64,000 nt of DNA. Origin: an uncultured Candidatus Saccharibacteria bacterium. GTDB taxonomy: Bacteria; Patescibacteriota; Minisyncoccia; Phycocordibacterales; JACOZG01. The notes beneath the pieces are model-generated. The model had not been told where the DNA came from. It saw only the letters and a list, made by a program, of their open reading frames with translations, and did not search any database. The stretch is from contig CAYNPK010000002.1 of assembly GCA_964399075.1 (NCBI GenBank), positions 20,418-84,417 of the forward strand. The letters run 5' to 3'. Made by a program: the position numbers and the translations under genes. Of this stretch, positions 1,849 to 20,681 are shown piece by piece (within the stretch, counting starts at the first letter, position 1; each line of letters begins with the position of its first letter).

Positions 1849-1986
1849 GGTGGGGGTTATTGAATTATATAATAATTGGGTGGTTGGGAAAAGCCAGTAT
1901 CGTGTGCTAGCTTGCCTTATTCTGTTATTTAGATTAGTATATGAATGGAGTTTGAGGTCTTTTGTTCGCGAAGGGAGGTGATATAC

Positions 1987-2130
1987 ATGAGTGAGTCGGA
2001 GATCCTTATTGTTCCCGATTCGAAGACGCACGCGAAGGTCGTCGAAAACATCGACTTGAAGGATGCCGTCGATGCACGACCATGCGATTGCGCCGCCTGC
2101 AGCTCCTGCAGGTGTACGCCGTGCAAGTAG
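1987..2130 (+). CDS. 47-aa Cys-rich peptide, candidate RiPP precursor (SCIFF/ranthipeptide-like: six Cys in C-terminal 14 residues)
   Basis: Internal ATG of track ORF 1945..2130, preceded by SD GGGAGGTG 6 nt upstream. Sequence MSESEILIVPDSKTHAKVVENIDLKDAVDARPCDCAACSSCRCTPCK. GC-rich relative to flanks. Sits immediately upstream of an HExxH gene and a radical SAM/SPASM gene. Confidence 0.5.
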   Translation: MSESEILIVPDSKTHAKVVENIDLKDAVDARPCDCAACSSCRCTPCK

Positions 2131-2216
2131 CATGGCTACACCAAAGAAAAGACCCGAGCATGTCTATAAACTGCTCTTTTTTATTTCTATTTTATTTAAA
2201 TTCAAGATTATTATCC

Positions 2217-3060: not shown

Positions 3061-4122
3061 ATGGAAGATTCAATCAGTACGGCGATAGTGAAACCAACAG
3101 ATGGTTTTTGTAACTTGGCTTGTTCCTATTGCTACATGCAGAAGGTCTGTACTCGGGGAAAAATTCGGGTCATGAGTGCGCACGTTCTTGAAAACCTAAC
3201 TGATTTCTTCTGTTCCGAATTGGAAGAAATTGAGTTCATCTGGCATGGCGGTGAACCTCTTTTGGCCGGAGTGGATTTCTATCAAAAGGTAGTTCAGTGT
3301 CAGGAAAGCTGGATCGCCTCTGGTAAGAAAATCGCGAACTTCGTTCAAACCAATGGGGTTTTGTTAAATGGCAGGTGGGCGGATTTCTTTTCCCAGAACG
3401 GCTTTGTGGTTGGGGTGAGTCTCGATGGTCCGGCCCGCGTTCACGATGCGACCAGACGTTTCAAGAGTGGCGGTAGTTCCTTGGTGGCAACTATCAATGG
3501 AATAGAGGTGGCCCGAAAAGCGGGCATCTTTAATGGGGTGATTTGTTGCGTAAGTTCTCACAATTGCGAATTAGCGGAAGAGACCTTTGATTTTCTCTGT
3601 TCCCTGGGGATTAAGAGTATAAAATTTCTCAGGGTCAAGGGGGAATTTGAGGACAGCGTCAACCAAGGTCAATATGTTCGTTTTCTTACGGCCGTCTTAA
3701 GAAGGTGGCTGGAGGTCGATGATCCGGAGATTGAAATTAGAGACATCAAAAGTCTGATAGACATAGCCTTGGGGGGCAATTTCAGAGAATGTGTCTACAT
3801 GGGAAGGTGTGATAAATTCGTTACCGTTTACGGAGACGGATCTATTTACGCCTGTGATAATTTGCCCAAGGTTGATCGATTCTGCTTCGGCAATGTGGTC
3901 CAGACGAGAAAGGAGGTGTTGCTTGGACCAAAACTCCAAAACTTTCTTGCGATGATTGATGAACGTAAGAAGAGTTGCTCGTCTTGTTTTTGGTTTGAGA
4001 CCTGTCGCGGCGGTTGCGCCTATCGGTACCTACAAGAAGAAAAGGAGGAAAATCAATGTGAAGACTTGAAAGATTTGTTTGGCACTGTTCGTGATGTACT
4101 TAAAAGGCACCAGATGGTCTAG
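3061..4122 (+). CDS. radical SAM / SPASM-domain peptide maturase (rSAM no.1; AnSME/ranthipeptide-maturase-like)
   Basis: CNLACSYC (C-x3-C-x2-C) and GGEPLL. C-terminal auxiliary-cluster Cys motif CSSCFWFETCRGGCAYRY. Confidence 0.85.
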   Translation: MEDSISTAIVKPTDGFCNLACSYCYMQKVCTRGKIRVMSAHVLENLTDFFCSELEEIEFIWHGGEPLLAGVDFYQKVVQCQESWIASGKKIANFVQTNGVLLNGRWADFFSQNGFVVGVSLDGPARVHDATRRFKSGGSSLVATINGIEVARKAGIFNGVICCVSSHNCELAEETFDFLCSLGIKSIKFLRVKGEFEDSVNQGQYVRFLTAVLRRWLEVDDPEIEIRDIKSLIDIALGGNFRECVYMGRCDKFVTVYGDGSIYACDNLPKVDRFCFGNVVQTRKEVLLGPKLQNFLAMIDERKKSCSSCFWFETCRGGCAYRYLQEEKEENQCEDLKDLFGTVRDVLKRHQMV

Positions 4123-4336: not shown

Positions 4337-4370
4337 CGAGTAGTCTATCGGACTACTCGTTTTTATTTTT
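4337..4370 (+). terminator. rho-independent terminator (CGAGTAGTC-loop-GACTACTCG + T-run)
   Basis: Perfect 9-bp stem followed by TTTTTATTTTT. Closes the rSAM no.1 peptide operon and is convergent with the 4363..5247 gene. Confidence 0.5.
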
Positions 4371-5247
4371 GAATGTGTCCTTTTAGAACTTCGATTAGCG
4401 ATTCGAGGTAGGCATTATCAAGAGGAATTTTACCTTCCGTATACTTCTTAGACCAACCATACATGTGATAAGCACATATTTTTCTTGTTTGTGAAAAATC
4501 TAAAATGTTTTCAGTTTTTGCCAATCGTTCGTTTGTAATTTTTACCACCTCTATGCCAAGATATTTCTCTGCTAAATATCCTTCTGGTATAAATGAACTG
4601 ATTATTAGTTCTTCTAAAACAAGATAAGTGTTTTTTGTGCCATAGTTAACTAGATTAATTATCTCTGAATTTTTTTCTGTTACTTTTTTTATTTTTTCCC
4701 AAAGTTGATGATTTTTCTTCAATATCAAATGGAAAAATTCATGAGCCAATATCCCAATAGAAAATTTATCAGGAATAATGTTGTCAACTGGGCACTCCAA
4801 AACTATACTACTTCTATCCGGAGACCAAGAAAACCAAGCCGACAAATTATCATAAGGACTAATCACCAGATTAATTTGAATATCTTCGATCGAGAGATTA
4901 TCCATGCCCGCAAGCGAAAGAGCATCAGCAATCACCAGGTCCAATGTCTGTAAATTATCTTGATAGTATTTGGAAAGTAGTTCGAGTTTTTTTAGAGCAG
5001 TAAGCCAAAATTTATCAAACTCTTGCTCAAAAGGAGCGATGGCTTTTCTAAATTCGGATAACTTATCTTGCCCAACCATCTCTTCAAGGCTAGACCAAAA
5101 AGTCTCGTCATTTTCGGTAGCCAGAAAGAGTTCAATATTTTGAACATCCTCTGTTTTTAATAGATCTTTGATTGTTTGTTCCTTTTTAATATCAACCAAA
5201 AAGTGCAAAAAGTTGACATTTTTTGAAATACTAAAATTTAATGACAT
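4363..5247 (-). CDS. HExxH metallopeptidase-like protein, family B (ILAHEFFHLILKKNH)
   Basis: 294-aa ORF with a single HEXXH. The 5' UTR contains GGAGGA and derives from the N-terminal coding sequence of the 8545..9363-type gene. Confidence 0.55.
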   Translation of the reverse strand: MSLNFSISKNVNFLHFLVDIKKEQTIKDLLKTEDVQNIELFLATENDETFWSSLEEMVGQDKLSEFRKAIAPFEQEFDKFWLTALKKLELLSKYYQDNLQTLDLVIADALSLAGMDNLSIEDIQINLVISPYDNLSAWFSWSPDRSSIVLECPVDNIIPDKFSIGILAHEFFHLILKKNHQLWEKIKKVTEKNSEIINLVNYGTKNTYLVLEELIISSFIPEGYLAEKYLGIEVVKITNERLAKTENILDFSQTRKICAYHMYGWSKKYTEGKIPLDNAYLESLIEVLKGHIQK

Positions 5248-5266
5248 TTTTTATTCAGAATATCCT

Positions 5267-5340
5267 CCAGTCTGGGAACTGTCTTAGGATTTTACCATAG
5301 AATGGCTAAAATTAGAAGGGGTGGTTATTGAATTATATAA
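5267..5340 (-). promoter_or_regulatory. repeated promoter/5'-leader module (copy 2) with extended -10 TATGGTAAAAT
   Basis: Core ATGGCTAAAATTAGAAGGGGTGGTTATTGAATTATATAA at 5302..5340. On the minus strand it reads CCCCTTCTAATTTTAGCCATTCTATGGTAAAAT, then a 45-nt leader with GGAGGA before ATG 5247. Confidence 0.4.
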
Positions 5341-5387
5341 CACATGATAGTTTACACAACTTCTCACGCTTTTTTATTTTTGCCACA

Positions 5388-6038
5388 CTAGTTATTAATA
5401 TATCTAAGGTATTCCAAGCTTGTTTTTACAAAATTTACAACATTTGGTTCTTTTGTCCAAATCCTTTTTATTTCTTCCAACTTATTTTTCAGATCAGGGT
5501 AAAATAGAAGTTCTTCTGCTCCGATAGATTTTTTAATTGATGGAAGATTAAGAAAAATCACATTAAATATTTCGGATAATTCCCACAAATTATTGTCATT
5601 CTCAATTTTTAAATCACCACAAAAATCATAAAAGGCAAAGTGGGTCAGTTCGTGGGCGATAACTTCTTTTCTCATGTCATGCGAACGTTTGTAATAAACT
5701 TGGAAACTTTTATTCTCTAGATAGCGTGGATTGCAATTAAAGATAGACAAGTAACAAGTATAATTTTTTTTGCTGTAATCTTGGCCGAAATATTTCTGTA
5801 ATTCTAAAAATAAAGATTCTTTTATTTCTCTAAAACATAGCTCGGTATCCTCAAGAGTATTTTTCAAACTATCTTGATTCGCAGTATAAAAATTATCTAT
5901 ATATTCAATATAGTTTTCTTTAGTTATGTCCGGATGATCATCACGTATCTTCTTACCAAAATCAGCGCCACCAACAATAGCATCACAAAAAGCCAAATAT
6001 ACTTCTTTATCTAATTGTTTATTGAGCAGGGTGTTCAT
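5388..6038 (-). CDS. HExxH metallopeptidase-like protein, family A paralog (IAHELTHFAFYDF)
   Basis: Homologous to 2217..2945. Its 3' end (5388..5485) is duplicated at 12788..12950. Confidence 0.6.
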   Translation of the reverse strand: MNTLLNKQLDKEVYLAFCDAIVGGADFGKKIRDDHPDITKENYIEYIDNFYTANQDSLKNTLEDTELCFREIKESLFLELQKYFGQDYSKKNYTCYLSIFNCNPRYLENKSFQVYYKRSHDMRKEVIAHELTHFAFYDFCGDLKIENDNNLWELSEIFNVIFLNLPSIKKSIGAEELLFYPDLKNKLEEIKRIWTKEPNVVNFVKTSLEYLRYINN

Positions 6039-6792
6039 TGCTCAAGTATCTTTTCCATGCTTTTTCCGCTTCGGTCGGGCTTATGCCGTATATTTCTTGA
6101 AAAATATCACTATTCTCATTTTTTGTTTTGAATCTATTGGTATTCTGATAAAGAGTTTTAAATTTTTCTTTACCATATTGTTCAATCAAGAATTTTGTAA
6201 ACGACCCAACAAAACAGTAGTAATAAAGAGCGTGATCGTCATCCAGCTCTTTCCATTTTGCGTGATCCATCATTGAATCTACTGGGGGCAGGAGCCCTTT
6301 ATTTGAAGCCTCATAAGCGAGTTTGTCGTGGTCTTCTCCATGCCAGCCGTGGCCAACCATATATTCTGCCAATCCTTCTTGAAAAAAAGCAATTGAAAGT
6401 CCCCACGGTAAGGATAATAAATGTGTATCTTCATGTTCTCCAATTGGTTTAATGTCTTTTGTATACAAAACATGCACAATAAAATCTTTCCAAATGGCTT
6501 GAGCATACCAATCATCACCCATTAATTTTTTCTTTGTTTTCAGATCAGGATAAAAATAATAAGTGATTTTTCTTTCTGGAGATAGAATTTCTAAAAATTC
6601 AATGATTTTTTTGAAAGCTCTTCCCTGTGTTTCTGAAATTTTTGTAATTTCTTTTTCCGCGATTGTTTTAGGTAAATAGTAAAAAATATAGTGTTCAGTT
6701 TCATGTTTGAGCCAAGAGATGTCATTTTTGAAATCCTCTTTGTACGTTGGGAGATTTTGGGTAATTTCAGGTGTGCTCATAATATTAAACAT
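6019..6792 (-). CDS. HEDTH-motif metallopeptidase-like protein (family H)
   Basis: 257-aa ORF with GEHEDTHLLSL followed by EGLAEYMVGHGWHGEDHD. Overlaps 5388..6038 by 20 nt, so probably operonic. Confidence 0.5.
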   Translation of the reverse strand: MFNIMSTPEITQNLPTYKEDFKNDISWLKHETEHYIFYYLPKTIAEKEITKISETQGRAFKKIIEFLEILSPERKITYYFYPDLKTKKKLMGDDWYAQAIWKDFIVHVLYTKDIKPIGEHEDTHLLSLPWGLSIAFFQEGLAEYMVGHGWHGEDHDKLAYEASNKGLLPPVDSMMDHAKWKELDDDHALYYYCFVGSFTKFLIEQYGKEKFKTLYQNTNRFKTKNENSDIFQEIYGISPTEAEKAWKRYLSNEHPAQ

Positions 6793-6832: not shown

Positions 6833-8143
6833 TTAGGAGTTGTACTCAAGAAACAACAAACCTTCGTTTAGAGTGGCGATTAGCTTGCGTTGACAGAACC
6901 TCTTTTCGAATCCTTTCTCTCCGTTTTCCACGATCGAGTCATGAATGCACCCACCGCCACATATTGGCAAATAGGGACATTTCTCTTCTACACACTTGTC
7001 TGTTCGAGAAAAATTCTCAAAACGAACATCTTGTGTATATGAGGTGGGAAAATCGGAAACGTGACCGAAATCGAAAGCGGGCCGTCCAACCGTACAGAAG
7101 CATTTTTGAAGTGCTCCATTCGGCTGAAGTACTGCCGAATGCTTTGCGATTGCCACGCACCATGGCCCCACAAGAAACTCGTCAGGTACAGCAAACCCAC
7201 ATTCTTTAGCGACACGCCAAGCAGCTACAGCTTTTTCGGCGGTCATTACTTCGGCCAAGGCTTTCGTGGTAGTGCCAAGAGATGGAACAACAAGACCTAG
7301 ACTTAAATGAATCTTGTTACCATAGCCAAGCTTTGCCAAGAAGCGTATAAGATCTGGCAACGATTCAGCGGTTTCTGTATCGAGAGAGAGTCTCAAGTTG
7401 ATCTTTGGCACGTATCCACCATCGAGCAACATTCTCACATTCGTGATAATCCTATCGAAAGTGGGTTGTTTGTCGTGGCCAACTCTACGGGTGTCATGCA
7501 ATTCTCTCGGACCGTCCAGGGTAATTTGCACTCGCCGTAAATCGTATCGTTTGAGTGCGATTGCCGTATTAGCGTCGAGAAGCAAGCCGTTAGTAGTGAT
7601 CTCGGTCCAATATTCTATTCCTTTCTTTTCAGTAAGCAACTTGATTCTTGTTAGGGCTTCTTTCGCCAAGTGTTTCACCAGAAGAGGTTCTCCTCCAAAT
7701 AAAACGCACTTCAGGGAAGCAACCTCTGGATTGGCTTCAAGGTATTGGTCAAGCCAGTGAACAGACTGACAAAGAACCGCCTCCGTCATCAATCCCAGTC
7801 GTCTTACTCCACGCTCGAAGCAATAGTGACAGTTAAGTTGACACTTCATGGTTGGCAGGAGATGCAATGTGAAGAGTTTTGCCTGTTCATTCCTTGTGTG
7901 GCGAAAGAAGTTACGATACTCGCGGAACTCGTCTTTGTCTTCTGGAACAACAAATCCATTATTGCCAGAAAGAGTTTCGATGGAATCATGGCTAGGCAAT
8001 GTTTGATCATGAAGCCACTTATCCAAAGATTCAATTGTTTTGCCATCAAGCATCGCGACTGCCCCAGTGAGATAATTCTTCACCAGAACATTCCCATCGG
8101 CAAAAGGGTAACGAACCGTAAATGCACTCCATTTGTACCTCAT
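6833..8143 (-). CDS. radical SAM / SPASM-domain peptide maturase (rSAM no.2)
   Basis: CQLNCHYC, FGGEPLL, and C-terminal CVEEKCPYLPICGGGCIHDS. Start is probably ATG 8143 (MRYKWSAF); the track uses GTG 8206. Confidence 0.85.
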   Translation of the reverse strand: MRYKWSAFTVRYPFADGNVLVKNYLTGAVAMLDGKTIESLDKWLHDQTLPSHDSIETLSGNNGFVVPEDKDEFREYRNFFRHTRNEQAKLFTLHLLPTMKCQLNCHYCFERGVRRLGLMTEAVLCQSVHWLDQYLEANPEVASLKCVLFGGEPLLVKHLAKEALTRIKLLTEKKGIEYWTEITTNGLLLDANTAIALKRYDLRRVQITLDGPRELHDTRRVGHDKQPTFDRIITNVRMLLDGGYVPKINLRLSLDTETAESLPDLIRFLAKLGYGNKIHLSLGLVVPSLGTTTKALAEVMTAEKAVAAWRVAKECGFAVPDEFLVGPWCVAIAKHSAVLQPNGALQKCFCTVGRPAFDFGHVSDFPTSYTQDVRFENFSRTDKCVEEKCPYLPICGGGCIHDSIVENGEKGFEKRFCQRKLIATLNEGLLFLEYNS

Positions 8144-8215
8144 GGTAGGACACATCCTTTCTAAAAAAATGTCCCGCAAGCTACACGCCTGCAGGACATC
8201 ATGCACTGCGACTCA

Positions 8216-8356
8216 CTAGTAGCCACAAGTGTCTTTGCCCAACCTGACCGGAGTGCGAAGGTCTTGGTTACCTGCTTTGAGCAGGATAACACCAGAGCTT
8301 TTCACACTAGCCGATCTTACAGGCCGAGTTGCCGGTTTGTCGTTCTTGGTAACCAT
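8216..8356 (-). CDS. 46-aa basic peptide upstream of rSAM no.2; candidate precursor
   Basis: ATG at 8356 with AGGAGG 8 nt upstream. Sequence MVTKNDKPATRPVRSASVKSSGVILLKAGNQDLRTPVRLGKDTCGY. Stop lies about 10 nt before the rSAM ORF. Same length and character as 4158..4298. Confidence 0.4.
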   Translation of the reverse strand: MVTKNDKPATRPVRSASVKSSGVILLKAGNQDLRTPVRLGKDTCGY

Positions 8357-8544: not shown

Positions 8545-9363
8545 TCACCCCATCTTTTCTTCCAGCAGCTTCTTTGTTTCATTGGGGTGACACATCCAGA
8601 AGTCTTCTCCCTCTATGTCGGTTGGCTCGAAGGCGATGATAAGCGGTTTGTGACCCAGTGTTTTATAGGCCTCAATAAAAGCTGGAAGAAACACTTCTCT
8701 GGTGAAGGAGATTTCTTTGTGATCAAGCATAAAGTTTTCAAACAAGACGCCGTTTCTAATGAATAATGATAGGAAGGGAGTATAGTATTCATTGGCGGTC
8801 ACGCCATGATTTTTAAACCACTTAGACGCATCGTAAAAAGAATCTCTGCGAAGTAATTTGTAAGTTTTTCTAAAAAGTCCGTGATGGAATCCTACCAGAG
8901 ATTGGTTCCATAAAGTTTTAACTTTTGAAATCTTTTTTCCTACAAATTCATTAAATTCAATGGCGTTTATTCTTTCTATTTTCATCCCCCCCTTCTTCCC
9001 TCTGCCTTGGAAAAAACTCAACTTGCCCAGGGAGTGTTTCCAGTCGTTGTTAGAAGTAAATTTATCATGCCGATATTCCCAAAACAGGAGCTTAGTATCT
9101 TCCAACGCATCAGCAATGCTGACAAATCTTCGGATTTCGTAATTGGGAGTAATCACCTGACGGAAAATTACCGCCCGCGGGTCTTTCTTGAAGGGCTCGG
9201 GGATGTCGTTCTTGAGAATTTTCAGCACTTTTTTCTCAAGTTCTTTGTCTTTTCTCCGCTCTTTTAACTCCCCAAGAGCCACCGACAGGGGAGTATAAAT
9301 AGTTTCTTCAAACAACTTCCTATTCGAGATGATTTTCGGAATATCCTCCAGTCTGGGAACCAT
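8545..9363 (-). CDS. hypothetical protein, family C (no recognisable motif)
   Basis: 272-aa ORF. Its 3'-terminal sequence recurs as truncated remnants at 15030..15112 and 16628..16660. Confidence 0.5.
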   Translation of the reverse strand: MVPRLEDIPKIISNRKLFEETIYTPLSVALGELKERRKDKELEKKVLKILKNDIPEPFKKDPRAVIFRQVITPNYEIRRFVSIADALEDTKLLFWEYRHDKFTSNNDWKHSLGKLSFFQGRGKKGGMKIERINAIEFNEFVGKKISKVKTLWNQSLVGFHHGLFRKTYKLLRRDSFYDASKWFKNHGVTANEYYTPFLSLFIRNGVLFENFMLDHKEISFTREVFLPAFIEAYKTLGHKPLIIAFEPTDIEGEDFWMCHPNETKKLLEEKMG

Positions 9364-9404
9364 CTCAAGATTCTACCACAGAATGGCTAAAATTAGAAGG
9401 GGTG
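9364..9404 (-). promoter_or_regulatory. repeated promoter module (copy 3), extended -10 TGGTAGAAT only 6 nt from ATG (leaderless arrangement)
   Basis: Minus strand reads CCCCTTCTAATTTTAGCCATTCTGTGGTAGAAT cttgag ATG(9363). Confidence 0.4.
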
Positions 9405-9441: not shown

Positions 9442-10056
9442 ATGAATAAAAATATTGAAATAGAAGTACGTGGCCTGTTGACGAAAGAAAAATTCGATAA
9501 TTTAGTATGTTTATTTGAGGCGAAAGCAAAAAAGACGGCAGAGAAAAATAGAGTTTTGATTGATTACTCCACTTTTTTGGAAGGCGGAGTAAAAAATAGA
9601 AATAAGGATATACGATTGCGAGTAACTAATGGGACTCCAGAAATTATCGTCAAGATTGGTGAATGGGGAGGATCTGAACGACGGAAAGAGCTCTCAGCTT
9701 TTACTAGCCCTGGCGAGTTTGACACCTTAGTTGAGATTTTTGGTGAACTCGGATTTTGTAAAGGAATGTTGTGTGTAAGAAAAAGCAAAGTGTACGAATA
9801 CAGAGATATCGAGTTTGCATTAGTAGAAGTACCAGGACATAGTTATTATTATGAGGCAGAAAAAATGGTGCACGAAGAAGAAGACGCTGAAAAAATAATT
9901 GAAGAAATTAAAAATGTTTGCAAAGAGCTTAATCTTGAAGTTCTTGATAAAAAACATTTTTTTGAGTACATAGAAAAATTAAATAAAGAATCCAATGAGG
10001 TTTTTGAGTACAAAAACCATACTTCAAATTATTTTAAAAATAGATTTAATCTATAA
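9442..10056 (+). CDS. CYTH-domain protein (triphosphate tunnel metalloenzyme family)
   Basis: N-terminal IEIEVRGLL (ExExK-type motif). Paralog of 20073..20681. Confidence 0.6.
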   Translation: MNKNIEIEVRGLLTKEKFDNLVCLFEAKAKKTAEKNRVLIDYSTFLEGGVKNRNKDIRLRVTNGTPEIIVKIGEWGGSERRKELSAFTSPGEFDTLVEIFGELGFCKGMLCVRKSKVYEYRDIEFALVEVPGHSYYYEAEKMVHEEEDAEKIIEEIKNVCKELNLEVLDKKHFFEYIEKLNKESNEVFEYKNHTSNYFKNRFNL

Positions 10057-10381: not shown

Positions 10382-11530
10382 CTAGAATGACACCTTGATA
10401 GCGCCAAATTTTGGAGGGCATACTCCAACGCAGGCGTTGCACGAAATGCAATTGTCGGCGATAACCGCCAACGGATTTTCGTCTGCACGACGAACTATTG
10501 AGAGGGCATCAAAGGCGCAGGCACGGACGCAGATTCCGCAACCCGTACACTTCTCTTCGATCACAACAGGACGAGGTGACGAAAACTGGTGTTCACTCGT
10601 CTTGTTGAGTGTAAGTCCGACTAGCTCTTCGACCGAGGCATACTTTGGGTTCTCTGCGAGAAACCTCCGCAAGTCAGCCGTAACCCGCCTGAAGACCGTA
10701 GGACCCTTCAGTGCTGGTGCGGTGTAAAGTTGCACTGCATTTGCACCTGCCATGAGCATCTGAATCACATCGTCTGCGGTGAAGATTCCACCGCAACCGA
10801 CGACTGGGATCTCGAGTTTTTCTGAAAGTTGACGTACACACCATAGAGCAATGGGGAAAATTGCTTTTCCCGTTACTCCACCACCTCCGCCTTTGATTCC
10901 AAGTTTTGGTTTGGCGGTTTTGGTGTCAATCAACATTCCAGGGCCTATGCTGTTTGTGCAAACGATAGCATCAGCTCCCAGTTCTTCAGCTCGTTGCGCC
11001 ATCGGGATCAGCAGGTTCGAGTACGACAGCTTGATCCAGATCGGTGTCGTCGTAACATCACGCACTTTTTTCATCAGTTGTTCTAGATGTAGTGCGTCGA
11101 CATTCAGATTCCCGTGTAGTGCTCCGGAATGTGAACAGGAGATGTTGATCTCGTAAGCATCAACATCTATCTCGTCGAATGTCTGGATCAGATAGCAACA
11201 GCTATCCATGTCGCGCCCAGAAAGCGAGATGATGATCGGGCAACCAGTTTCCTTGACTTGGCGTACTCCATGTTCCTGCCAATCCGTCCACGGCTTTTCG
11301 TTTCCCCACTCGCAGTTAAGCATGTTGTCTTGACCGAAAACTGCGTAGCGTGGAGCTGTGATTCTTGAACGTTCCGCTGGAACATGTTGCTTGAGCGATC
11401 GGGTCACCACGCCAGCACATCCGTATGGTTGAGCCTTCAGGAAAAACTTCGATGTTTCGGTGATGTACCCTGAGGCCAGCAACAACGGAGTCCGTAATTT
11501 CACTTTGCCGACTTGTGCATTGAGAGACAT
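10382..11530 (-). CDS. PreA-like dihydroorotate/dihydropyrimidine dehydrogenase-family flavoprotein with C-terminal 2x[4Fe-4S] ferredoxin domain
   Basis: DHOD-like core (GGGGGVTGKAIFPIALWCV) plus CTGCGICVRACAF and CISCNACVGVCPP. Best start is ATG 11530, 6 nt after GGAGG. Confidence 0.7.
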   Translation of the reverse strand: MSLNAQVGKVKLRTPLLLASGYITETSKFFLKAQPYGCAGVVTRSLKQHVPAERSRITAPRYAVFGQDNMLNCEWGNEKPWTDWQEHGVRQVKETGCPIIISLSGRDMDSCCYLIQTFDEIDVDAYEINISCSHSGALHGNLNVDALHLEQLMKKVRDVTTTPIWIKLSYSNLLIPMAQRAEELGADAIVCTNSIGPGMLIDTKTAKPKLGIKGGGGGVTGKAIFPIALWCVRQLSEKLEIPVVGCGGIFTADDVIQMLMAGANAVQLYTAPALKGPTVFRRVTADLRRFLAENPKYASVEELVGLTLNKTSEHQFSSPRPVVIEEKCTGCGICVRACAFDALSIVRRADENPLAVIADNCISCNACVGVCPPKFGAIKVSF

Positions 11531-12102
11531 GGCCATCCTCCTTTCTTTGTTAAGTGTGATGCCAAAACTTCGAGCACCGCATCCAGAACTCGAGATTCTC
11601 CAGCTTCAGTAACTTCAATTACTGAAGTAAATAGCGAACTTCGCAGCAGGATTGTGTTGATTTCGCTTTCGGCTGTTGTAACTCTTTTTTCTATCTCTGC
11701 CAAACTTTCGGTCTTTCGTACGACAGAAAGTCTTTTGTGGAGCAGTGAGAGGTCAAAAGTCACAAGACCGATAGTGAAAATCTCGGGGTTAATTCTGAGC
11801 GCTTCCAACATGTTGTCTGGATGCACCTCAGTCAGTTTGATGTCTGAACTTGGGAGCAGGTCTTCTTTTCTCAGGCCATAACGATGGCCAAAGAGGTCTT
11901 GGACCAAGACAAGCTCGCTAGAGTCAGTCATGCGATTGAATTCAAGAACTGGAACATGGATTCTGTTTCCGCCCTGCTCGTTTGGACGCAGAGGACGGGT
12001 TGTAAACCATGCCAATTCCTGGATGTGCGGATGAAGTTGTAGCAGTCGTTCCTTAATGAAGCCCTTGCCAATTCCAGAGGGACCGCTAAGAGAGATAATC
12101 AT
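11500..12102 (-). CDS. guanylate kinase-like P-loop protein
   Basis: ISLSGPSGIGKG Walker A and WFTTRPLRPNE guanylate-kinase signature. 3' end overlaps the PreA-like gene start. Confidence 0.6.
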   Translation of the reverse strand: MIISLSGPSGIGKGFIKERLLQLHPHIQELAWFTTRPLRPNEQGGNRIHVPVLEFNRMTDSSELVLVQDLFGHRYGLRKEDLLPSSDIKLTEVHPDNMLEALRINPEIFTIGLVTFDLSLLHKRLSVVRKTESLAEIEKRVTTAESEINTILLRSSLFTSVIEVTEAGESRVLDAVLEVLASHLTKKGGWPCLSMHKSAK

Positions 12103-12204: not shown

Positions 12205-12779
12205 CTAGAAATTACTAGCTTTTTCGCCCAGCCTCTCTAAGGCTAAGACTTCATATCTCGGAATTTTGTAACCGCCTCTCTTTTTAATTTCTGCTAGTAA
12301 CAGCTTCATGTAATGCTGAATCGCTCCGAATTTTTCGTATTTTTTATCTGTTTCTGAGGAACACTAAGAATATCTCCCAGAACCTTTCGGCAGTTCTCTG
12401 ATCCACATTCACATTTCATTTTCCATTCTGTTGGAGCCATTGTCATGGAGTAGTCGTAGGTTATTTCTTCTCCCGTATCTATATCCCTAAGCGCAAAAAG
12501 TTCACTCTTTTTTCTTATACCTCCGCTCGGGTCACAGCTGTGATTAAAAGTGCGAGACAGTTCATCAAGATCAATATAGGTTTGTCTGCCAATCTGAAAT
12601 GGGTCATCGATATTTTCTTTGCCGGAAATGACACTGTCTACAAGATTTTTTAGAGTCAATTTTTTCCCATCAAGAACGTGGATAATTTCACCCTTCTTTA
12701 TGTCCTGACCAGCAAAAACTCCCTTACCATACTTGTCGGTATTCTTAACAATTAATTTTTTGTCTGAAAATGAAGTCAT
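12205..12779 (-). pseudogene. SET-domain protein paralog carrying a -1/+1 frameshift in an A6 run (pseudogene or sequencing error)
   Basis: Residues 1-157 (MTSFSDKKLIVKNTDKYGKGVFAG...NHSCDPSG...KCECGSENC) are in one frame to 12306. The C-terminal MKLLLAEIKKRGGYKIPRYEVLALERLGEKASNF continues in another frame to stop at 12205. The switch is at the homopolymer near 12343..12349. Confidence 0.5.
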
Positions 12780-12787
12780 GGTGGGGG

Positions 12788-12950
12788 GGTTATTGAATTA
12801 TATAACACATGATAGTTTACACAACTTCTCACGCTTTTTTATTTTTGCCACACTAGTTATTAATAGATCTAAGGTACTCCAAGCTTGTTTTTACAAAATT
12901 TACAACATTTGGTTCTTTTGTCCAAATCTTTTTTATTTCTTCCACAAACT
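12788..12950. repeat. near-identical copy (~165 nt) of 5321..5485: promoter-module core plus the 3' coding end of a family-A HExxH gene (gene remnant)
   Basis: ggttattgaattatataacacatgatagtttacacaacttctcacgc...ttggttcttttgtccaaatc is shared with few mismatches. No intact ORF here. Confidence 0.6.
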
Positions 12951-12995
12951 TTTTTAAATACGGGTTCATGTTTCTATTATATGATATGTGTAGCC

Positions 12996-13622
12996 CTAGC
13001 TATTTCTTATTATCTTTTCTAAGTTAGGGTAATGATCCTCAAATGCCTTTTTGATTTTCTCTGTCTCATCTATCCCAATAGGTATCTTTTGCCACCTATG
13101 AAGTTCTGGAAAAGCTTTATCAAACAATAATTCAACTAAAGTCTCCTTCTGCCATTGTCCTACTTTGTATTTATCTATCAAAGGTTGGATGTGGAGATGG
13201 ATAGTTTCGTGCAAGAGGGTGTTGATAATGCCCCCCGTGTTTTTCTTAGAAATATTTATGATTACTCCATTCGGCGGTGAATAACTGCCACCGATGCCAT
13301 ATTTTGTTAAAACTATTTCTATTTCAGGGATCGGTTCTAATTTCAATTCTTCAATTAGTTTTAATAATCTGCTTTTTTGAGATTCTATCCCTGCTCTTGC
13401 TTCTTGCTCTATGTTTAAAAAAGTTCCCGCCGAATATTCATTATCTATCCTTTTTTCTAAAGCCTCTTCGGTATCGTTTTCTAAATTTTCCATATCCATT
13501 CCTGTCGGGAAAGTTAGATTATCCAATTTGTAGCCATTAGCTTTAAACCAGTCCAACCTCTTGATTGTCTGGAGGATTCTCGTTTTCTCTAATTTTGGTG
13601 AATATTTAAAGCTGAAGTTCAT
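12996..13622 (-). CDS. HExxH metallopeptidase-like protein, family D (LLHETIHLHIQP)
   Basis: 208-aa ORF with a single HEXXH. Confidence 0.55.
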   Translation of the reverse strand: MNFSFKYSPKLEKTRILQTIKRLDWFKANGYKLDNLTFPTGMDMENLENDTEEALEKRIDNEYSAGTFLNIEQEARAGIESQKSRLLKLIEELKLEPIPEIEIVLTKYGIGGSYSPPNGVIINISKKNTGGIINTLLHETIHLHIQPLIDKYKVGQWQKETLVELLFDKAFPELHRWQKIPIGIDETEKIKKAFEDHYPNLEKIIRNS

Positions 13623-13654
13623 GGTTATGTATTAATAATAGACAAAAAAATGGC

Positions 13655-13690
13655 TCCGGACAAATAATGTTCGGAGCCATCAGGTTATTA
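13655..13690 (-). terminator. rho-independent terminator closing rSAM no.3 - peptide operon
   Basis: ATGGCTCCG-loop-CGGAGCCAT perfect 9-bp stem with TTTTTTT on the minus strand. Confidence 0.5.
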
Positions 13691-13700
13691 CCGCTGTGCC

Positions 13701-13859
13701 TCATAGGCAATCAGGGCAATCGCAATCGGGAGGATTGGGACAATCGTCCGGGTCCGGTTGGCAGTACCCATCGCTCGACAAAGACCGAGCGCGTAGGTTT
13801 TGCACGGGTAAATCTCTTGAGATACCCGGCGTCGTCATCATTTCCGCTAGTGCTTCCAT
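13701..13859 (-). CDS. 52-aa Asp/Pro/Cys-rich peptide, candidate ranthipeptide-like RiPP precursor
   Basis: ATG 13859 preceded by GGAGAAAGGAGAG, 27 nt after the rSAM no.3 stop. Sequence MEALAEMMTTPGISRDLPVQNLRARSLSSDGYCQPDPDDCPNPPDCDCPDCL. GC-rich. Below the ORF-track size cutoff. Confidence 0.5.
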   Translation of the reverse strand: MEALAEMMTTPGISRDLPVQNLRARSLSSDGYCQPDPDDCPNPPDCDCPDCL

Positions 13860-13886
13860 GATGCCAACTCTCCTTTCTCCTGGAAC

Positions 13887-14915
13887 TTACCGTCCAGGTA
13901 CTAGGGTTTGAGCGTCGAAGACTGTCCACATCAGAGGACATCCTCCTCCGCAGTAATCCTTATGCTCACAATCGATGCACCTGTTGGATGGGTATGAGTT
14001 GATCCGGTCGTGATTGGTCGACACCTCCTCACTGTTCAATAGCCTTAGGAGTGAGTTTGCGTCATGAAAATCTTGATCGATTTCTCCTGTTGGAAATTCT
14101 GACATTCCATTACACGCAAGGAGGTTGCCAGCTGGGTCGAATATTACTCCCGTTCTGTTTTGGAATTGACATCCCGTGCAGAGTTGTCGCCTCTCCATGA
14201 GTAGACTAATAAAATCCCTTGGCCACACACAAAGTGGTGTTTTGAGAGAGAGGACCATCCTCCCATCCATCAGTTCGTGAAGCTTCTGGTATTGCGACAC
14301 GATATCTGTGACCAAATCAGCTATTGGGATCATTCCAGTTGTGCTAGGCCCCCGTTTGCCGACTGAAGGAGTGCAAGGACTAATGCTCACGCTATTTGCT
14401 CCACACTCTCGCGCAAAGGTCACAAGTTGGAGAAGTTTACCTCGAACGAAAGAGTTGTAGACCAGGCTAGCCCCGCATCCAAATTCTGAGGCTAATCGAG
14501 ATAGTCCAAGTCTCAATTGTTGCCAGTTGGATATGTGTGCCAGACTTTTACCTGACTCCTCATCGAAAGCTTTGATGGAGGGACTTACCCGATCATTTGG
14601 TGATTTTAGATATCCTGACCAGAAAAGATCGTCAGAAAATCTCTCTCCGTTTGTGACGATTGTGGTCTTGATTCCACAAGCTCTTGACTCCCTGTTGAAT
14701 CTTAAAAGAGGTTCCCAGAGCGTGGGTTCCCCCCCGATCAGGTCAATCTGCTTTATCTCCAAGTCTTTAATTATTGACAGAAGCCTTAGAGATAGTGGTA
14801 GGCTCATTGTTTTGCCACCGTCAAAACCTTGGTTTCTTGCATAACACCATTTACAACGGAAGTTGCACGACAAGTTTGTTGTAATCCAGGCAACCTTTGG
14901 TTTGGCTGTAAGCAT
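13887..14915 (-). CDS. radical SAM / SPASM-domain peptide maturase (rSAM no.3)
   Basis: CNFRCKWC, IGGEPTL, and C-terminal CIDCEHKDYCGGGCPLMW. RBS GGGAGGA 8 nt before ATG 14915. Confidence 0.85.
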   Translation of the reverse strand: MLTAKPKVAWITTNLSCNFRCKWCYARNQGFDGGKTMSLPLSLRLLSIIKDLEIKQIDLIGGEPTLWEPLLRFNRESRACGIKTTIVTNGERFSDDLFWSGYLKSPNDRVSPSIKAFDEESGKSLAHISNWQQLRLGLSRLASEFGCGASLVYNSFVRGKLLQLVTFARECGANSVSISPCTPSVGKRGPSTTGMIPIADLVTDIVSQYQKLHELMDGRMVLSLKTPLCVWPRDFISLLMERRQLCTGCQFQNRTGVIFDPAGNLLACNGMSEFPTGEIDQDFHDANSLLRLLNSEEVSTNHDRINSYPSNRCIDCEHKDYCGGGCPLMWTVFDAQTLVPGR

Positions 14916-15029
14916 TTGAGTTTCCTCCCAATATCAAAGAACAAAATGAGATCGGGACCATCCTGAATCTCGTCTAAGATTAAGACTACGTCTGCTATTT
15001 TATTTTGTCAAGATTATGTATCCGTCTAC

Positions 15030-15112
15030 CCCATCTTTTCTTCCAACAGCTTCTTAGTTTCATTGGGATGGAACATCCAGAAGCCCTCTCCCTCTATGTC
15101 GGTTGGGTAGAA
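15030..15112. repeat. truncated remnant of the 3' end of a family-C gene (cf. 8548..8640)
   Basis: ccccatcttttcttccaacagcttcttagtttcattggg...ccagaagccctctccctctatgtcggttgg is about 90% identical to the 8545..9363 C-terminal coding sequence. Confidence 0.5.
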
Positions 15113-16627: not shown

Positions 16628-16715
16628 CACCTCATCTTTTCTTCCACAAACTTCTTAGTTTCATTCTCAAGATTCTACCACAGAATAGCTAAAATTAGAA
16701 GGGGGAGTGCAAAGA
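16628..16715 (-). promoter_or_regulatory. promoter module copy 5 (TGTGGTAGAAT) fused directly to a 3'-terminal remnant of a family-C gene
   Basis: ctcaagattctaccacagaatagctaaaattagaaggggg next to catcttttcttccacaaacttcttagtttcatt. Confidence 0.4.
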
Positions 16716-16888: not shown

Positions 16889-18199
16889 ATGAAATTATCG
16901 CGTTTTAATGTTTGGTCGCTTTGTGACCATGGTCTCATTATCTTTAACACTCTTACTTGCGCCTTGTCAGTTTTCGAAGGGGATTACATTGAAAAGGTGT
17001 TCCGGGCTCTCAAGAATGAGGACATTGACAGTATTCCAGGAGAATTTTTGCTGGCAATGTCTGAGGATGGTTATTTAGTTGAGGACGAACTCGATGAACT
17101 TGGATTTATCAGAGATGCTTGCTGTGAAAGACGGTCTAAAACGGACGAGTACTCCCTGTGTGTGATTCTTACAATGGATTGCAACTTGGATTGCGCCTAT
17201 TGCTTCCAGAAGCATTCCAAAGAAAATCTATCACAGGTTGAAGTTGCCAAGGTTTTGAACATGTTTCGAGGGATAGCAACCAAGGCAAAGAGGATTGAAG
17301 TTGACTGGTTTGGTGGCGAGCCACTTCGCTCGTTCAGTGTTCTGAAATCCATGAATGATCAGCTTATGGCTATTGCTCAAGCTTCGGGTGTAGATTATCA
17401 GCATTCAATTACTACTAATGGTTACTACCTAAGCCATAAAGTAATCACCTATCTAGCCAAAACTCCTCTCTCGATTCTCACGATCACTCTGGATGGTCCC
17501 GCAGAAACTCACGATCGTAGTCGGCCAACAAAAAGTGGTCAGCCAACATTCCTTAAGATTCTCGAGAATGTTCAGATGGCGATTAAGGCTGGTCTGAATA
17601 TTTCTATTCGGGTTAACATTACTACTCTGAATGTTGATCGGGTTCATGAGTTGTATGATGTCTTGGAGTCGCGTGGTCTCAAGAACAAAGTTGAGGTTAA
17701 TCTCCAGGCAGTGGTTTCTTCTGACGTTAGATCGTGTGAGGAATACTGTCTTTCTGGACACGACTTCGCTTGTCGATCAATGAGGATATACAAGTGGGCA
17801 GCACAAAAAGGATGGGTGGTTTTTCCTCCCACGGAAAAATTGAGGGCTTTGGGATTTTGTGTTGGAGAGTACCCGAATCGCTTCATCACTGATCTCCATG
17901 GGAACTTGTATCGATGTAGTCAAATGACGGACGACGAGATGGTCGGCGCCCTAGATGACGATGGCTCAATCATTCTTCGGGAGACGGAGAATGAACTTTG
18001 GATTAACAAAGATCCTCTCAAGTTTCCTGAATGTCAAGGATGCTCAATCTTACCCATTTGCATGGGCGGTTGTAATCTTAAGCGGCGCGCCGGCAAAAAG
18101 TCAGTAGACTACTGTCTCGACTGGAAACATGATTTACCCGGCTTGCTTGAGGTCTTAGTGCTGAATGAGAGAAATATCGCCCTCTCCCAGCTGGATTGA
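16889..18199 (+). CDS. radical SAM / SPASM-domain peptide maturase (rSAM no.4)
   Basis: CNLDCAYC, FGGEPL, and C-terminal CQGCSILPICMGGCNLKR. RBS AAGGAAGAAG before ATG. Confidence 0.85.
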   Translation: MKLSRFNVWSLCDHGLIIFNTLTCALSVFEGDYIEKVFRALKNEDIDSIPGEFLLAMSEDGYLVEDELDELGFIRDACCERRSKTDEYSLCVILTMDCNLDCAYCFQKHSKENLSQVEVAKVLNMFRGIATKAKRIEVDWFGGEPLRSFSVLKSMNDQLMAIAQASGVDYQHSITTNGYYLSHKVITYLAKTPLSILTITLDGPAETHDRSRPTKSGQPTFLKILENVQMAIKAGLNISIRVNITTLNVDRVHELYDVLESRGLKNKVEVNLQAVVSSDVRSCEEYCLSGHDFACRSMRIYKWAAQKGWVVFPPTEKLRALGFCVGEYPNRFITDLHGNLYRCSQMTDDEMVGALDDDGSIILRETENELWINKDPLKFPECQGCSILPICMGGCNLKRRAGKKSVDYCLDWKHDLPGLLEVLVLNERNIALSQLD

Positions 18200-18250
18200 A
18201 GAATGGTTGCTTTGTTGGTACTCTTAAGTGTTGGAAAGGAGGTGATGAAC

Positions 18251-18331
18251 ATGAAGCGCGTTAAAAAAGCACGGGCGACAAAAGTAGTTACGCCACGTGC
18301 GACGTTCTCATCCTGCTGCAGAAACAAGTGA
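18251..18331 (+). CDS. 26-aa basic peptide with C-terminal SSCC; candidate precursor
   Basis: GGAAAGGAGGTG 8 nt before ATG 18251. Sequence MKRVKKARATKVVTPRATFSSCCRNK. A strong terminator follows. Confidence 0.4.
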   Translation: MKRVKKARATKVVTPRATFSSCCRNK

Positions 18332-18347: not shown

Positions 18348-18382
18348 AGAGGCACAAGCTAGAAAGCTTGTGCCTCTTTTTC
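18348..18382. terminator. rho-independent terminator (13-bp perfect stem AGAGGCACAAGCT/AGCTTGTGCCTCT, loop AGAA, TTTTTC)
   Basis: Closes rSAM no.4 and the peptide gene. Also sits at the 3' end of the convergent gene 18359..18808. Confidence 0.6.
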
Positions 18383-18808
18383 ATGTTTCTCGTCTCTTCT
18401 TCCCAAGAACGCCGCTACGACATTGTCGACAAATTCTTCAAGTTTGTTTAAGTAAAGTTCGTGATTTTGTCCGAATTTTTTATGATTTTCCAATATTAAA
18501 TCCTCACTGAATTTGTCGTAGTCATTTATTAAAACATGGACTAATTCGTGAACTAAGGTATGTTCTTCGTCACACCAAGGATTCCACGTTAATTGTATGG
18601 TGGCGATTTTCTTTTGAGAATTAGCTTCGAAGCCGCCACTTTGTCGCCATCCATTTTCACGCCAAAAATCCACAATCTTGAGATCTAATTTCCAATCGGC
18701 CATGCCCATTTTCTCCTGCCACTTCCTGAGCAATTTTTCCAGTTCGGGCACAGCTAAACCCCTTTTCTTGTTTTCAAATCCGTAAAATATTTTACGATCT
18801 CCTTCCAT
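18359..18808 (-). CDS. HExxH metallopeptidase-like protein, family E (HTLVHELVHVLIND; SprT/DUF45-like)
   Basis: 149-aa ORF. Confidence 0.55.
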   Translation of the reverse strand: MEGDRKIFYGFENKKRGLAVPELEKLLRKWQEKMGMADWKLDLKIVDFWRENGWRQSGGFEANSQKKIATIQLTWNPWCDEEHTLVHELVHVLINDYDKFSEDLILENHKKFGQNHELYLNKLEEFVDNVVAAFLGRRDEKHEKEAQAF

Positions 18809-19494: not shown

Positions 19495-20076
19495 CTATAA
19501 ATCGCTGAACCATTTAGCAAACTGAATCTCGGCATCACCCCAAATATCCAGAAATTTTTGATAATCCTCGTTTCTGATTTCACCCATAGATTTACCCCCT
19601 GGGTTGTGTGGATGATCTGGAATGAACAATCTGTCAATAAAACTGCCCTCATCAAGAGAAAGTGTTTCTGTGATATGGCCACCGCACTCACTCTCAAAGA
19701 TTTTTGGTTCACCTCCGGGCTCACAATATGCTAAAGAATTTTTTATCTTCGCTTTACGGTTTTTCAGTTTTTTTAATACGTTAAAAAACAGATCGGCTCC
19801 TACTTGTTTATCTACATAAAATACAAAAGGTCCTGGAAAACCTCCTAGTTCTTCTATGAAAAAGCCGGAATCCATTTTTATAACTGGCTGGTTCAATAAG
19901 TTGGCGCCATATTTTGCGGAATACGCAGCAACCTCGCTATTGTCCTCAGATTGTATCTCGGGAATCCATGGTTTTTGTATTTCTACATCAATATCATAAC
20001 CAGTTATGGCTTGTTCGAAGCTCTTCTTTTTCTTCTCATTTCCCGTTAGTAGAATTATTTTTTTTGTCATAATCAA
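19495..20076 (-). CDS. Ham1/ITPase-family non-canonical purine NTP pyrophosphatase
   Basis: IILLTGNEKKKKSFE N-terminal motif and FIPDHPHNPGGKSMGEI. Confidence 0.55.
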   Translation of the reverse strand: MIMTKKIILLTGNEKKKKSFEQAITGYDIDVEIQKPWIPEIQSEDNSEVAAYSAKYGANLLNQPVIKMDSGFFIEELGGFPGPFVFYVDKQVGADLFFNVLKKLKNRKAKIKNSLAYCEPGGEPKIFESECGGHITETLSLDEGSFIDRLFIPDHPHNPGGKSMGEIRNEDYQKFLDIWGDAEIQFAKWFSDL

Positions 20077-20681
20077 TAGGCGTTTAACATCGAGCTTAAT
20101 TTTTTTAAATGACCCGCTGAGCCATTAAATATCCAATCCGAATGTTTTGTGAGTCGATTGCATAGCTGATTAAATTTCTTAGCGTCTCCTATTAGCTTTA
20201 AATTATAATTTTTAATTACATCCAACAATTCAGCTTTATTTTTTTCTAAATTTTTTGCGTTAGACATTTTTTCTACCTCTACATAAGCGATTGACCCAGC
20301 TTTGACTAGTGTCAATGTGATATTATTTCCCAAATCAAAATTAAAATTTTCACGTTCGGTAACTTTTGAAGCAAGTCCAAGTAGCGAAAACGTTTTCGCT
20401 AGATCAACGAATCGCTCCTTTGTAATTTTTCGAGAATCTTCGACCCGATCGTGAGTGTGGAAATCTCCTCTTTTTATAACAATTTCGGCTTCATTGTTTG
20501 AGTTTATGCGAACTCTAATATCAACATTTACTTTGTTTATTTCTCCCAAAAACATAACCGACAATCTTTTTGTCTTGGATATTTGTTTATTTGTTTTATT
20601 TAAACCACTAAGTAGTTTTCTAAATTGAGTAGGAGTGACTTCTGCCCTCAATTCAAGTTCTATGTTGTTATTATTTGACAT
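20073..20681 (-). CDS. CYTH-domain protein (paralog)
   Basis: MSNNNNIELELRAEV start. Homologous to 9442..10056. Confidence 0.6.
   Translation of the reverse strand: MSNNNNIELELRAEVTPTQFRKLLSGLNKTNKQISKTKRLSVMFLGEINKVNVDIRVRINSNNEAEIVIKRGDFHTHDRVEDSRKITKERFVDLAKTFSLLGLASKVTERENFNFDLGNNITLTLVKAGSIAYVEVEKMSNAKNLEKNKAELLDVIKNYNLKLIGDAKKFNQLCNRLTKHSDWIFNGSAGHLKKLSSMLNAY

Follow-up and report, generated by a model that had tools for sequence, protein, structure and literature searches.

A radical-SAM/SPASM gene, a Cys-rich precursor gene and an HExxH partner gene form a candidate RiPP cassette in Candidatus Saccharibacteria

Introduction

In the genome of an uncultured Candidatus Saccharibacteria bacterium, a gene for a radical S-adenosylmethionine (rSAM) enzyme with a SPASM domain is followed by a short open reading frame (ORF) rich in Asp, Pro and Cys. 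Does this ORF encode the substrate of the enzyme, do the two genes make up the whole functional unit, and what would the product be? These questions arose from a sequence-only reading of a 64,000-nucleotide (nt) stretch of DNA (contig CAYNPK010000002.1 of GenBank assembly GCA_964399075.1, positions 20,418 to 84,417), here called the window. That reading had described the pair, cassette 3 of the window, as a compact bicistron whose product resembles ranthipeptides such as freyrasin. Uncharacterised rSAM families that mature ribosomally synthesised peptides with post-translational modifications (RiPPs) are numerous. Patescibacteria, for their part, have tiny genomes and are usually reported with few or no biosynthetic gene clusters. 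A survey found no such clusters in its Patescibacteria metagenome-assembled genomes (MAGs) (PMC11613949). Here we report that the small ORF is a genuine precursor gene, that a third gene encoding an HExxH protein is conserved with the pair, and that the trio probably constitutes a RiPP cassette.

Results

The rSAM gene ends in a TAA stop codon, and exactly 27 nt farther on comes the ATG, at 13859, of the 52-residue peptide, whose translation is exactly the one quoted in the sequence-only reading (Table 1). The Shine-Dalgarno (SD)-like sequences pointed out in that reading needed slight adjustment: GGGAGGA is present but stands 7 rather than 8 nt ahead of the rSAM ATG, and GGAGAAAGGAGAG, while correctly placed in the 27-nt spacer, is 8 nt away from the peptide ATG instead of abutting it. 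Homologues of the peptide were sought with a word-indexed search of 5.8 billion proteins and with a full phmmer search of 1.84 billion representatives, which yielded nothing but the peptide itself and one low-complexity repeat protein. Similarly, none of the NCBIfam precursor families matched the peptide or eight relatives of it (9 precursors). As there were no sequence homologues for the precursors, synteny and leader profiles were needed. A protein search with the enzyme gave 218 homologues at E ≤ 1e-5, and from the 200 confirmed genome-collection stretches carrying an rSAM homologue we compared 80 loci. These are mostly from Patescibacteria (Saccharibacteria, Parcubacteria groups, WWE3 and CPR2), together with some Firmicutes, Myxococcota and Proteobacteria MAGs. 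From the taxonomy of these enzyme relatives alone, the source organism would probably be placed in Patescibacteria. Metagenome loci L083-L114 formed a second, separate set. In addition, SRR11845628 and SRR11845629 contain identical contigs.

To be counted as a precursor, an ORF had to have three or more Cys among its final 30 residues and to start between −60 and +150 nt from the rSAM stop. Such a Cys-rich ORF came right after the rSAM gene in 56 of the 80 loci, compared with 13 of the 79 controls on the reverse complement and 7 of the 68 control regions far downstream (about 10-17%), and it was likewise found after the rSAM gene in most of the metagenome loci. Five further loci carried the Cys-rich ORF beyond the next gene, which encodes the HExxH protein, at about 5780..5990, either on the same strand (L007 and L057) or convergently (L010, L012 and L017). 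The trio of rSAM, precursor and HExxH genes was retained despite this permuted gene order.

Alignment of the precursors revealed a common leader pattern, M-(D/E/K)-x-L-h-x-x-h followed by (V/S/T)-(T/S)-G-(I/V) and then by a P-x-G-(I/L) element, after which about 10 variable residues lead into the Cys-rich core. A hidden Markov model (HMM) of the leaders alone, drawn from 17 other loci after removal of the cores, was run over every one of the window's 1803 stop-to-stop segments. The peptide ORF was the sole significant match (E = 1.1e-4), the next-best segment reaching 0.33. Because it is conserved after the rSAM gene and is the only segment of the window to match the leader HMM, the small ORF is a real gene, namely a genuine precursor gene conserved beside homologous enzymes. 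The sequence-only reading had staked its pairing of an rSAM/SPASM enzyme with a cognate Cys-rich precursor on just this conservation, and the pairing stands. Collectively, a precursor adjoining its enzyme, a conserved leader and a variable core recur across genomes, which makes the locus a RiPP cassette in the generic sense. An overlapping 76-residue ORF (13711..13941) was also considered as the precursor and was rejected, since it contains neither Cys nor the leader motif. Two of the related loci deserve separate mention. One metagenome locus (L106, 1887-2203) carries two tandem precursor genes with differing cores. In the closest genome relative (L001, 5052-5217), the precursor is split over two frames, the first with the leader and ...HCDDCTTPQ and the second with ...PPNDCDCDCAPPHCGVS, which reflects either a frameshift or an assembly error.

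The start of the enzyme gene at 14915 on the minus strand was borne out, as were the two parts expected of its product. The radical-SAM motif CNFRCKWC occupies residues 17-24, the three Cys of its CxxxCxxC signature (C17, C21 and C24) are invariant in an alignment of 43 homologues, and the Pfam model Radical_SAM (PF04055) matches at 5.5e-12. The C-terminal SPASM domain is recognised by TIGR04085 with 36.1 bits against a cut-off of 27. Seven further invariant Cys in the same alignment display the SPASM 7-Cys pattern (Cx9-15Gx4C ... CxxCx5Cx3C) as C229, C249-x13-G263-x4-C268 and C313-x2-C316-x5-C322-x3-C326. The closest of the 218 homologues, labelled Candidatus Vogelbacteria, is 57% identical. 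For the AlphaFold2 (AF2) model of the enzyme (predicted local distance difference test, pLDDT, 94), the nearest solved structures were SuiB (E 9e-13; query-normalised TM-score, TMq, 0.70) and anSME (TMq 0.67-0.69); CteB, SkfB and PqqE came next, and the identity to all of these was 14-18%.

No NCBIfam equivalog model passed its cut-off for the 342-residue enzyme. The StsB model scored 38.4 bits against 625 and the PqqE model 33.6 against 381; the PapB model (NF047865) reached 32.8 against 340, over residues 16-72 only, and the SCIFF maturase model (TIGR03974) 29.5 against 425, which places the enzyme outside both of these families. Neither did we find an N-terminal RiPP recognition element (RRE), the radical-SAM motif beginning as early as residue 17 and no PqqD-like Pfam match being present, nor did ORF clustering over the 80 loci reveal a conserved stand-alone RRE gene near the rSAM gene. 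The family profile aligns to residues 136-448 of SuiB (1.6e-20) and to CteB from residue 94. The enzyme therefore comprises the catalytic rSAM and SPASM parts without an N-terminal RRE, which we take to be the role of residues 1 to about 135 in SuiB. Judged from these sequence features, the enzyme is a SPASM peptide maturase from an uncurated family.

The pair is not the whole conserved unit, as the term compact bicistron had implied. The ORF clustering identified one further conserved neighbour, a protein of 125-290 residues encoded directly after the peptide, which in the window is the 208-residue HExxH protein. Its gene is linked to those of the enzyme and the peptide in about 50 of the 80 loci, in some of them with the order permuted. 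The order rSAM, peptide, HExxH was found in 38 of the 80 loci; in eight others the HExxH gene is present, but the peptide has moved elsewhere or contains few Cys. Many of the other contigs stop before the question can be judged. Among 40 sequences of the HExxH family, the mean column identity is 20% and the sole invariant columns are H138, E139 and H142. All 40 also carry a (K/Q)E 14-28 residues downstream of HExxH (E160 in the window protein), and together with the HExxH motif this Glu gives the gluzincin arrangement. The predicted structure of the 208-residue protein has a zincin fold, and its top Foldseek matches in the PDB were all metallopeptidases, none of them significant. No Pfam or NCBIfam family passed its threshold for this protein, which thus belongs to no curated peptidase family. 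Elsewhere in the family, three members match the SprT family at 6.8e-6, and a few have sub-threshold SprT-like, M76 or DUF5700 matches. The sequence of the 208-residue protein contains no signal peptide and no hydrophobic segment. On the strength of its HExxH...E arrangement, its zincin-type model and this lack of a signal peptide, we read gene 3 as encoding a putative cytoplasmic leader peptidase of the gluzincin type.

The hairpin described as the cassette's own terminator is present between the precursor and HExxH genes, with the 9-bp perfect stem and the T7 run that had been noted. The stem pairs ATGGCTCCG (13680..13672) with CGGAGCCAT (13658..13650) around a loop of 13 nt, and the T-run occupies 13650..13644. 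The predicted RNA fold has an energy of −24.3 kcal/mol (z = −4.0), a value reached by 0 of 200 shuffles; a consensus terminator scan missed the structure because its loop limit is 8 nt. Of 56 related loci, 38 had a terminator-like hairpin with a T-run no more than 130 nt past the stop of the precursor gene, compared with 7 of 56 when the opposite strand was used as the control. As it recurs in related loci, the hairpin is a conserved part of the architecture between the two genes, and a GC-rich stem-loop and U-run at such a conserved position would be predicted to act as a terminator or attenuator. By analogy with other operons for RiPPs, the natural reading is an attenuator, which would allow plenty of rSAM-precursor transcript and little peptidase transcript. 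A promoter-like site overlapping the terminator tail matches the consensus at 9 of 12 positions, and the number of such sites in the region is not above shuffle expectation; it is a weak candidate for a separate start of gene 3. Independent or leaderless expression of the HExxH gene is possible. No Rfam RNA family was detected within the cassette. The GC richness ascribed to this stretch holds locally but is modest, the peptide ORF having 54.7% and the rSAM gene 46.6% GC, against 42.2% for the window and 31-37% for the flanking intergenic regions; it is due to Cys, Asp, Pro and Gly codons.

Table 1 Coordinates of cassette 3 and of related features in the window
Feature	Position	Strand	Basis or remarks
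rSAM/SPASM peptide maturase gene	13887..14915	minus	342 aa; ORF list and domain models
Shine-Dalgarno-like GGGAGGA	14923..14929	minus	7 nt ahead of rSAM ATG; read from sequence
Precursor peptide gene	13701..13859	minus	52 aa and stop; ORF list, locus conservation, leader HMM
Precursor leader, roughly residues 1-32	13764..13859	minus	MEALAEMMTTPGISRDLPVQNLRARSLSSDGY
Precursor core, residues 33-52	13704..13763	minus	CQPDPDDCPNPPDCDCPDCL
Shine-Dalgarno-like GGAGAAAGGAGAG	13868..13880	minus	8 nt ahead of peptide ATG; read from sequence
Intrinsic-terminator-like hairpin and T7	13644..13680	minus	Between precursor and HExxH genes
Promoter-like site TTGTCC, 17 nt, TATTAT	13635..13663	minus	Overlaps terminator tail, ~12 nt before HExxH start codon
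HExxH protein gene (motif HETIH)	12996..13622	minus	208 aa; third conserved cassette member; starts 22 nt past T-run
HETIH motif, residues 138-142	13197..13211	minus	With conserved Glu160
HExxH ORF	2082..2945	plus	Motif HELLH
HExxH ORF	4363..5247	minus	Motif HEFFH
HExxH ORF	5388..6038	minus	Motif HELTH
HExxH ORF	6019..6792	minus	Motif HEDTH
HExxH ORF	18359..18808	minus	Motif HELVH
Upstream bracket	15028..15112		85-bp copy, 89% identical, of 8547..8631 (3' end of gene 8545..9363); remnant; self-BLASTN
Downstream bracket	12783..12944		162-bp copy, 97.5% identical, of 5318..5479; self-BLASTN

The core of the window peptide, CQPDPDDCPNPPDCDCPDCL, contains five Cys, and in four of these Asp follows 0-4 residues downstream, in the arrangements C-x2-D, C-x4-D, C-D and C-x-D; the C-X3-D (or C-X3-E) repeat of the freyrasin type is absent. 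The sequence-only reading had placed Asp beside nearly every Cys; in the window peptide it is next to or near four of the five, and this feature is confined to the close clade. Close relatives, with 42-57% enzyme identity, share the core pattern C...DDC-x-x-P-x-DCDC(D/N)C, with the consensus DDCxxPxDCDC, and the conserved dipeptide of this clade, D-C, is the reverse of the freyrasin order. More distant cores read CDCxYCPC, CNACSACDCACSDC, CKCRCANCKCNCYC and ICDCGDDGDCC, and distant family members also have CKCRC or CQCDC cores in which acidic residues are few or missing. What is constant throughout the family is the C-x-C repeat, in which x may be K, R, Q, N, A, S, Y and others.

Enzymes of the rSAM/SPASM type that act on Cys-rich cores typically make thioethers; among the characterised SPASM enzymes, SuiB forms a Lys-Trp C-C bond and anSME converts Cys to formylglycine. 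By analogy, thioether crosslinking would be the most likely chemistry of cassette 3, and we put the chance that thioethers of some kind are the product at slightly under even. PapB joins Cys to Asp or Glu, with C-Xn-D tolerated for n = 0-6 (PMC9413430). Because of this tolerance, together with the Asp found 0-4 residues downstream of four of the five Cys, Cys-Asp bridges are plausible here. Asp itself would be a conceivable but rather doubtful crosslink acceptor.

Four rSAM/SPASM genes (3061..4122, 6833..8206, 13887..14915 and 16889..18199), that of cassette 3 among them, share a 19-kb stretch, and the first 19 kb of the window contain six HExxH ORFs, each rSAM gene having one or two next to it. 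Two of the HExxH ORFs (2082..2945 and 5388..6038) are paralogues with 33% identity, and that at 6019..6792 has a weak Peptidase_MA_2 match. The arrangement resembles a RiPP island where every maturase is accompanied by a zincin-like protein. Self-comparison of the window further showed that cassettes 2 and 3 share bracketing DNA, the copies at cassette 3 being truncated gene remnants (Table 1). The source of the downstream bracket, 5318..5479, comprises the 3' end of the paralogous HExxH gene at 5388..6038 and the spacer downstream of it; accordingly, a remnant ORF in the bracket (12853..12969) equals the C-terminus of that gene product. In addition, two SET-domain genes on the minus strand (1276..2133 and 12306..12779) are 67% identical paralogues, with 73% DNA identity over 575 bp, and each of them adjoins an rSAM/HExxH cassette. 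The shared brackets and the SET-domain paralogues suggest that the locus may have been duplicated and that the interior of the cassette was then replaced by recombination.

Several other features of the window were recorded. SET-domain ORFs lie near the rSAM gene in three related loci (L006, L009 and L016). Intergenic repeats of 40-70 bp with 90-97.5% identity (5254..5323 and 9335..9404; 9363..9402 and 16665..16704) occur upstream of several island genes and may be shared promoter or regulatory segments. Right after the fourth rSAM gene, a 42-residue ORF on the plus strand (18203..18331) ends in ...TFSSCCRNK and is a possible precursor; another precursor candidate, upstream of the second rSAM gene on the minus strand (8216..8356), reaches just E 1.5 with the cassette-3 leader profile. 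Further genes of the island, on the minus strand, encode a dihydroorotate-dehydrogenase-like protein that carries a fused 2x[4Fe-4S] ferredoxin domain (10382..11536) and, overlapping it, a guanylate-kinase-like protein (11500..12102). Also in the island, two paralogous CYTH-domain proteins with 29% identity are encoded at 9442..10056 on the plus strand and at 20073..20681 on the minus strand. The rest of the window contains one tmRNA (51619..52011, tag ANSSDDSVVSPYFAPSYALA) and two tRNAs, one of which, a predicted tRNA-Ile on the minus strand (59160..59233), has the anticodon TAT instead of the usual lysidine-modified CAT type.

Discussion

We consider it probable that cassette 3 is a three-gene RiPP cassette, belonging to an uncurated family common in Patescibacteria and consisting of a maturase, its precursor and a zincin that removes the leader. 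The model draws on the gene content of the locus, the conservation of the trio, the homology of the leaders, the cofactor motifs, the folds and the recurrence of the hairpin. The rSAM and precursor genes would be co-transcribed from the intergenic region upstream of 14915, and the hairpin with its T7 would stop most transcripts, the HExxH protein then arising in smaller amounts, through read-through or a weak promoter of its own. The 52-residue peptide would combine a hypervariable Cys-rich core with a conserved leader, laid out as an N-terminal amphipathic helix followed by (T/S)xG(I/V) and then by a P-x-G(I/L)-like element. The RRE-less enzyme would bind the leader directly and, using a 5'-deoxyadenosyl radical and two auxiliary Fe-S clusters, would modify the core at or beside its five Cys. 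The likeliest product would be a set of intramolecular thioether bridges, and the flanking Asp would be the most plausible carbon acceptors in the close clade. Finally, the cytoplasmic HExxH...E zincin would cleave off the leader. As for the sequence-only reading, its observation is confirmed and its interpretation is partly supported.

Several findings weigh against this model. No transporter is conserved in the neighbourhood of the 80 clustered loci, and no SD sequence precedes the HExxH gene. Asp beside Cys is confined to the close clade and is not conserved family-wide. In addition, SuiB, anSME, CteB, PqqE and SkfB all stand at about the same distance from the enzyme, and the thioether-maturase models all score far under their cut-offs.

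If the downstream gene were unrelated, the rSAM and peptide genes could form a self-contained freyrasin-like ranthipeptide unit with PapB-type thioethers between the Cys sulfur and the Asp beta-carbon. The Asp beside or near four of the five core Cys, the C-Xn-D spacings accepted by PapB (n = 0-6; PMC9413430) and the strong hairpin behind the peptide gene would all fit such a unit. We regard it as unlikely, given that the enzyme scores at a small fraction of the PapB and SCIFF maturase cut-offs and has no RRE, that the core has no C-X3-D repeat, and that the D-C order of the close clade (DDC, DCDC) is opposite to that of freyrasin. The CKCRC or CQCDC cores of distant members are moreover scarcely acidic, and the HExxH gene stays with the pair even when the gene order is permuted, so that the assignment to freyrasin-type ranthipeptides is an analogy at most. 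The peptidase role of gene 3 has its own competitor. ChlH, BpmH and PflC/PosC (IPR026337/TIGR04267) are zincin-like HExxH partners of rSAM maturases with Asp among their substrates (PMC12636437), and gene 3 might encode a comparable metal-dependent oxygenase, like these alpha-ketoglutarate (alpha-KG)/Fe(II) HExxH beta-hydroxylases, that, once the crosslinks are in place, hydroxylates Asp or other residues of the core. This appears distinctly unlikely: even with E allowed up to 1, TIGR04267/IPR026337 matches none of the 40 HExxH members, NCBIfam yields no match to the window protein at E up to 0.01, the gene 3 proteins are much smaller, and the partner is retained in clades whose cores carry no Asp.

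The maturase, too, could do something other than crosslink, such as an anSME-like conversion of Cys to formylglycine, an epimerisation or another outcome of hydrogen abstraction. With 342 residues and no RRE it is as compact as anSME, which is also among its nearest structural matches, and its sequence is at a similar distance from all characterised SPASM enzymes. Such a modification nonetheless seems very unlikely, as the core has no sulfatase-type C-x-(A/P)-x-R motif, the anSME model is absent among the 25 best-scoring NCBIfam matches listed, and a dedicated leader joined to a hypervariable Cys-repeat core is a hallmark of crosslinked RiPPs. A further objection, that the small ORF is spurious or encodes a metallothionein-like metal-binding peptide that adjoins the rSAM gene by accident, could appeal to the resemblance of the C-x-C repeats to metallothionein motifs and to the failure of sequence searches to yield a homologue. 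It is effectively refuted by the comparative data, that is, by positional conservation over phyla-level diversity, the shared leader, the strong SD sequence, the 27-nt spacing and a linkage that survives permutation of the gene order. At the other extreme, the cassettes could represent an undescribed, Patescibacteria-wide RiPP class with RRE-less rSAM/SPASM enzymes, C-x-C cores modified by neither sactipeptide nor ranthipeptide chemistry, a mini-gluzincin as obligate partner and cassettes swapped between conserved flanks. The chemistry might then involve, for example, bridges between vicinal D-C or C-x-C positions or a non-thioether transformation of Cys, and the mini-gluzincin might be a peptidase or a metal-dependent tailoring enzyme. 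We judge this reading improbable; if it were true, a RiPP island in so reduced a genome would point to a central part in an episymbiotic way of life.

For the three-gene RiPP cassette that we favour, the wider interest lies in a family that occurs in about 200 stretches of the genome collection and has precursor and partner genes that curated models fail to recognise. The trio offers a concrete target of about 2 kb for heterologous expression, and the leader motif combined with the partner-gene signature can be used for mining similar systems. The HExxH proteins are candidates for a new minimal family tied to RiPP maturation, and a new crosslink class would be added if the chemistry differs from the known thioether types. 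In the literature on Patescibacteria, Saccharibacteria, Parcubacteria, rSAM/SPASM RiPPs and ranthipeptides we found no description of the family, which is weak evidence, since most subscription journals were outside the scope of the search.

Among known systems, SuiB, the streptide Lys-Trp crosslinker (PDB 5v1q/5v1t), is the best profile and structural match, and it shares the three-cluster SPASM architecture acting on a leader-bearing peptide. The identity to the cassette-3 enzyme is, however, just 16-17%, and the N-terminal region of SuiB has no counterpart here. The cassette-3 peptide contains no Lys/Trp pair, and SuiB-type C-C crosslinking is therefore excluded. Like the cassette-3 enzyme, anSME (PDB 4k36-4k39) is a compact, RRE-less rSAM/SPASM protein of similar length that acts on a peptide Cys. 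It differs in that its profile match is weak (E 5e-12) and limited to the rSAM half, and that the cassette-3 substrate is a dedicated leader/core peptide without a sulfatase motif. The HExxH protein, in turn, was compared with zincin metallopeptidases, including the M1 gluzincins LTA4H, APN and ERAP1, the minimal zincins Wss1/SprT and RiPP leader peptidases. It is set apart from them by the lack of a curated family match, by Foldseek matches below significance and by its family-specific N-terminal region of about 95 residues. With the alpha-KG HExxH hydroxylases it has in common that an HExxH protein partners an rSAM maturase in a RiPP cluster.

The ranthipeptides, represented by freyrasin (PapA/PapB) and the SCIFF/CteB-type systems, resemble cassette 3 in having an rSAM/SPASM gene beside a short leader-bearing precursor whose core is rich in Cys and acidic residues, and, by analogy, multiple intramolecular thioethers would be a likely outcome here as well. 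Unlike them, cassette 3 has an enzyme that scores far under the PapB and SCIFF cut-offs and is without an N-terminal RRE, a core built on a D-C/C-x-C repeat, and a dedicated HExxH partner gene. Collectively, the features that distinguish the cassette are its RRE-less maturase, a C-x-C-repeat precursor family with a leader of its own, and a dedicated minimal HExxH partner.

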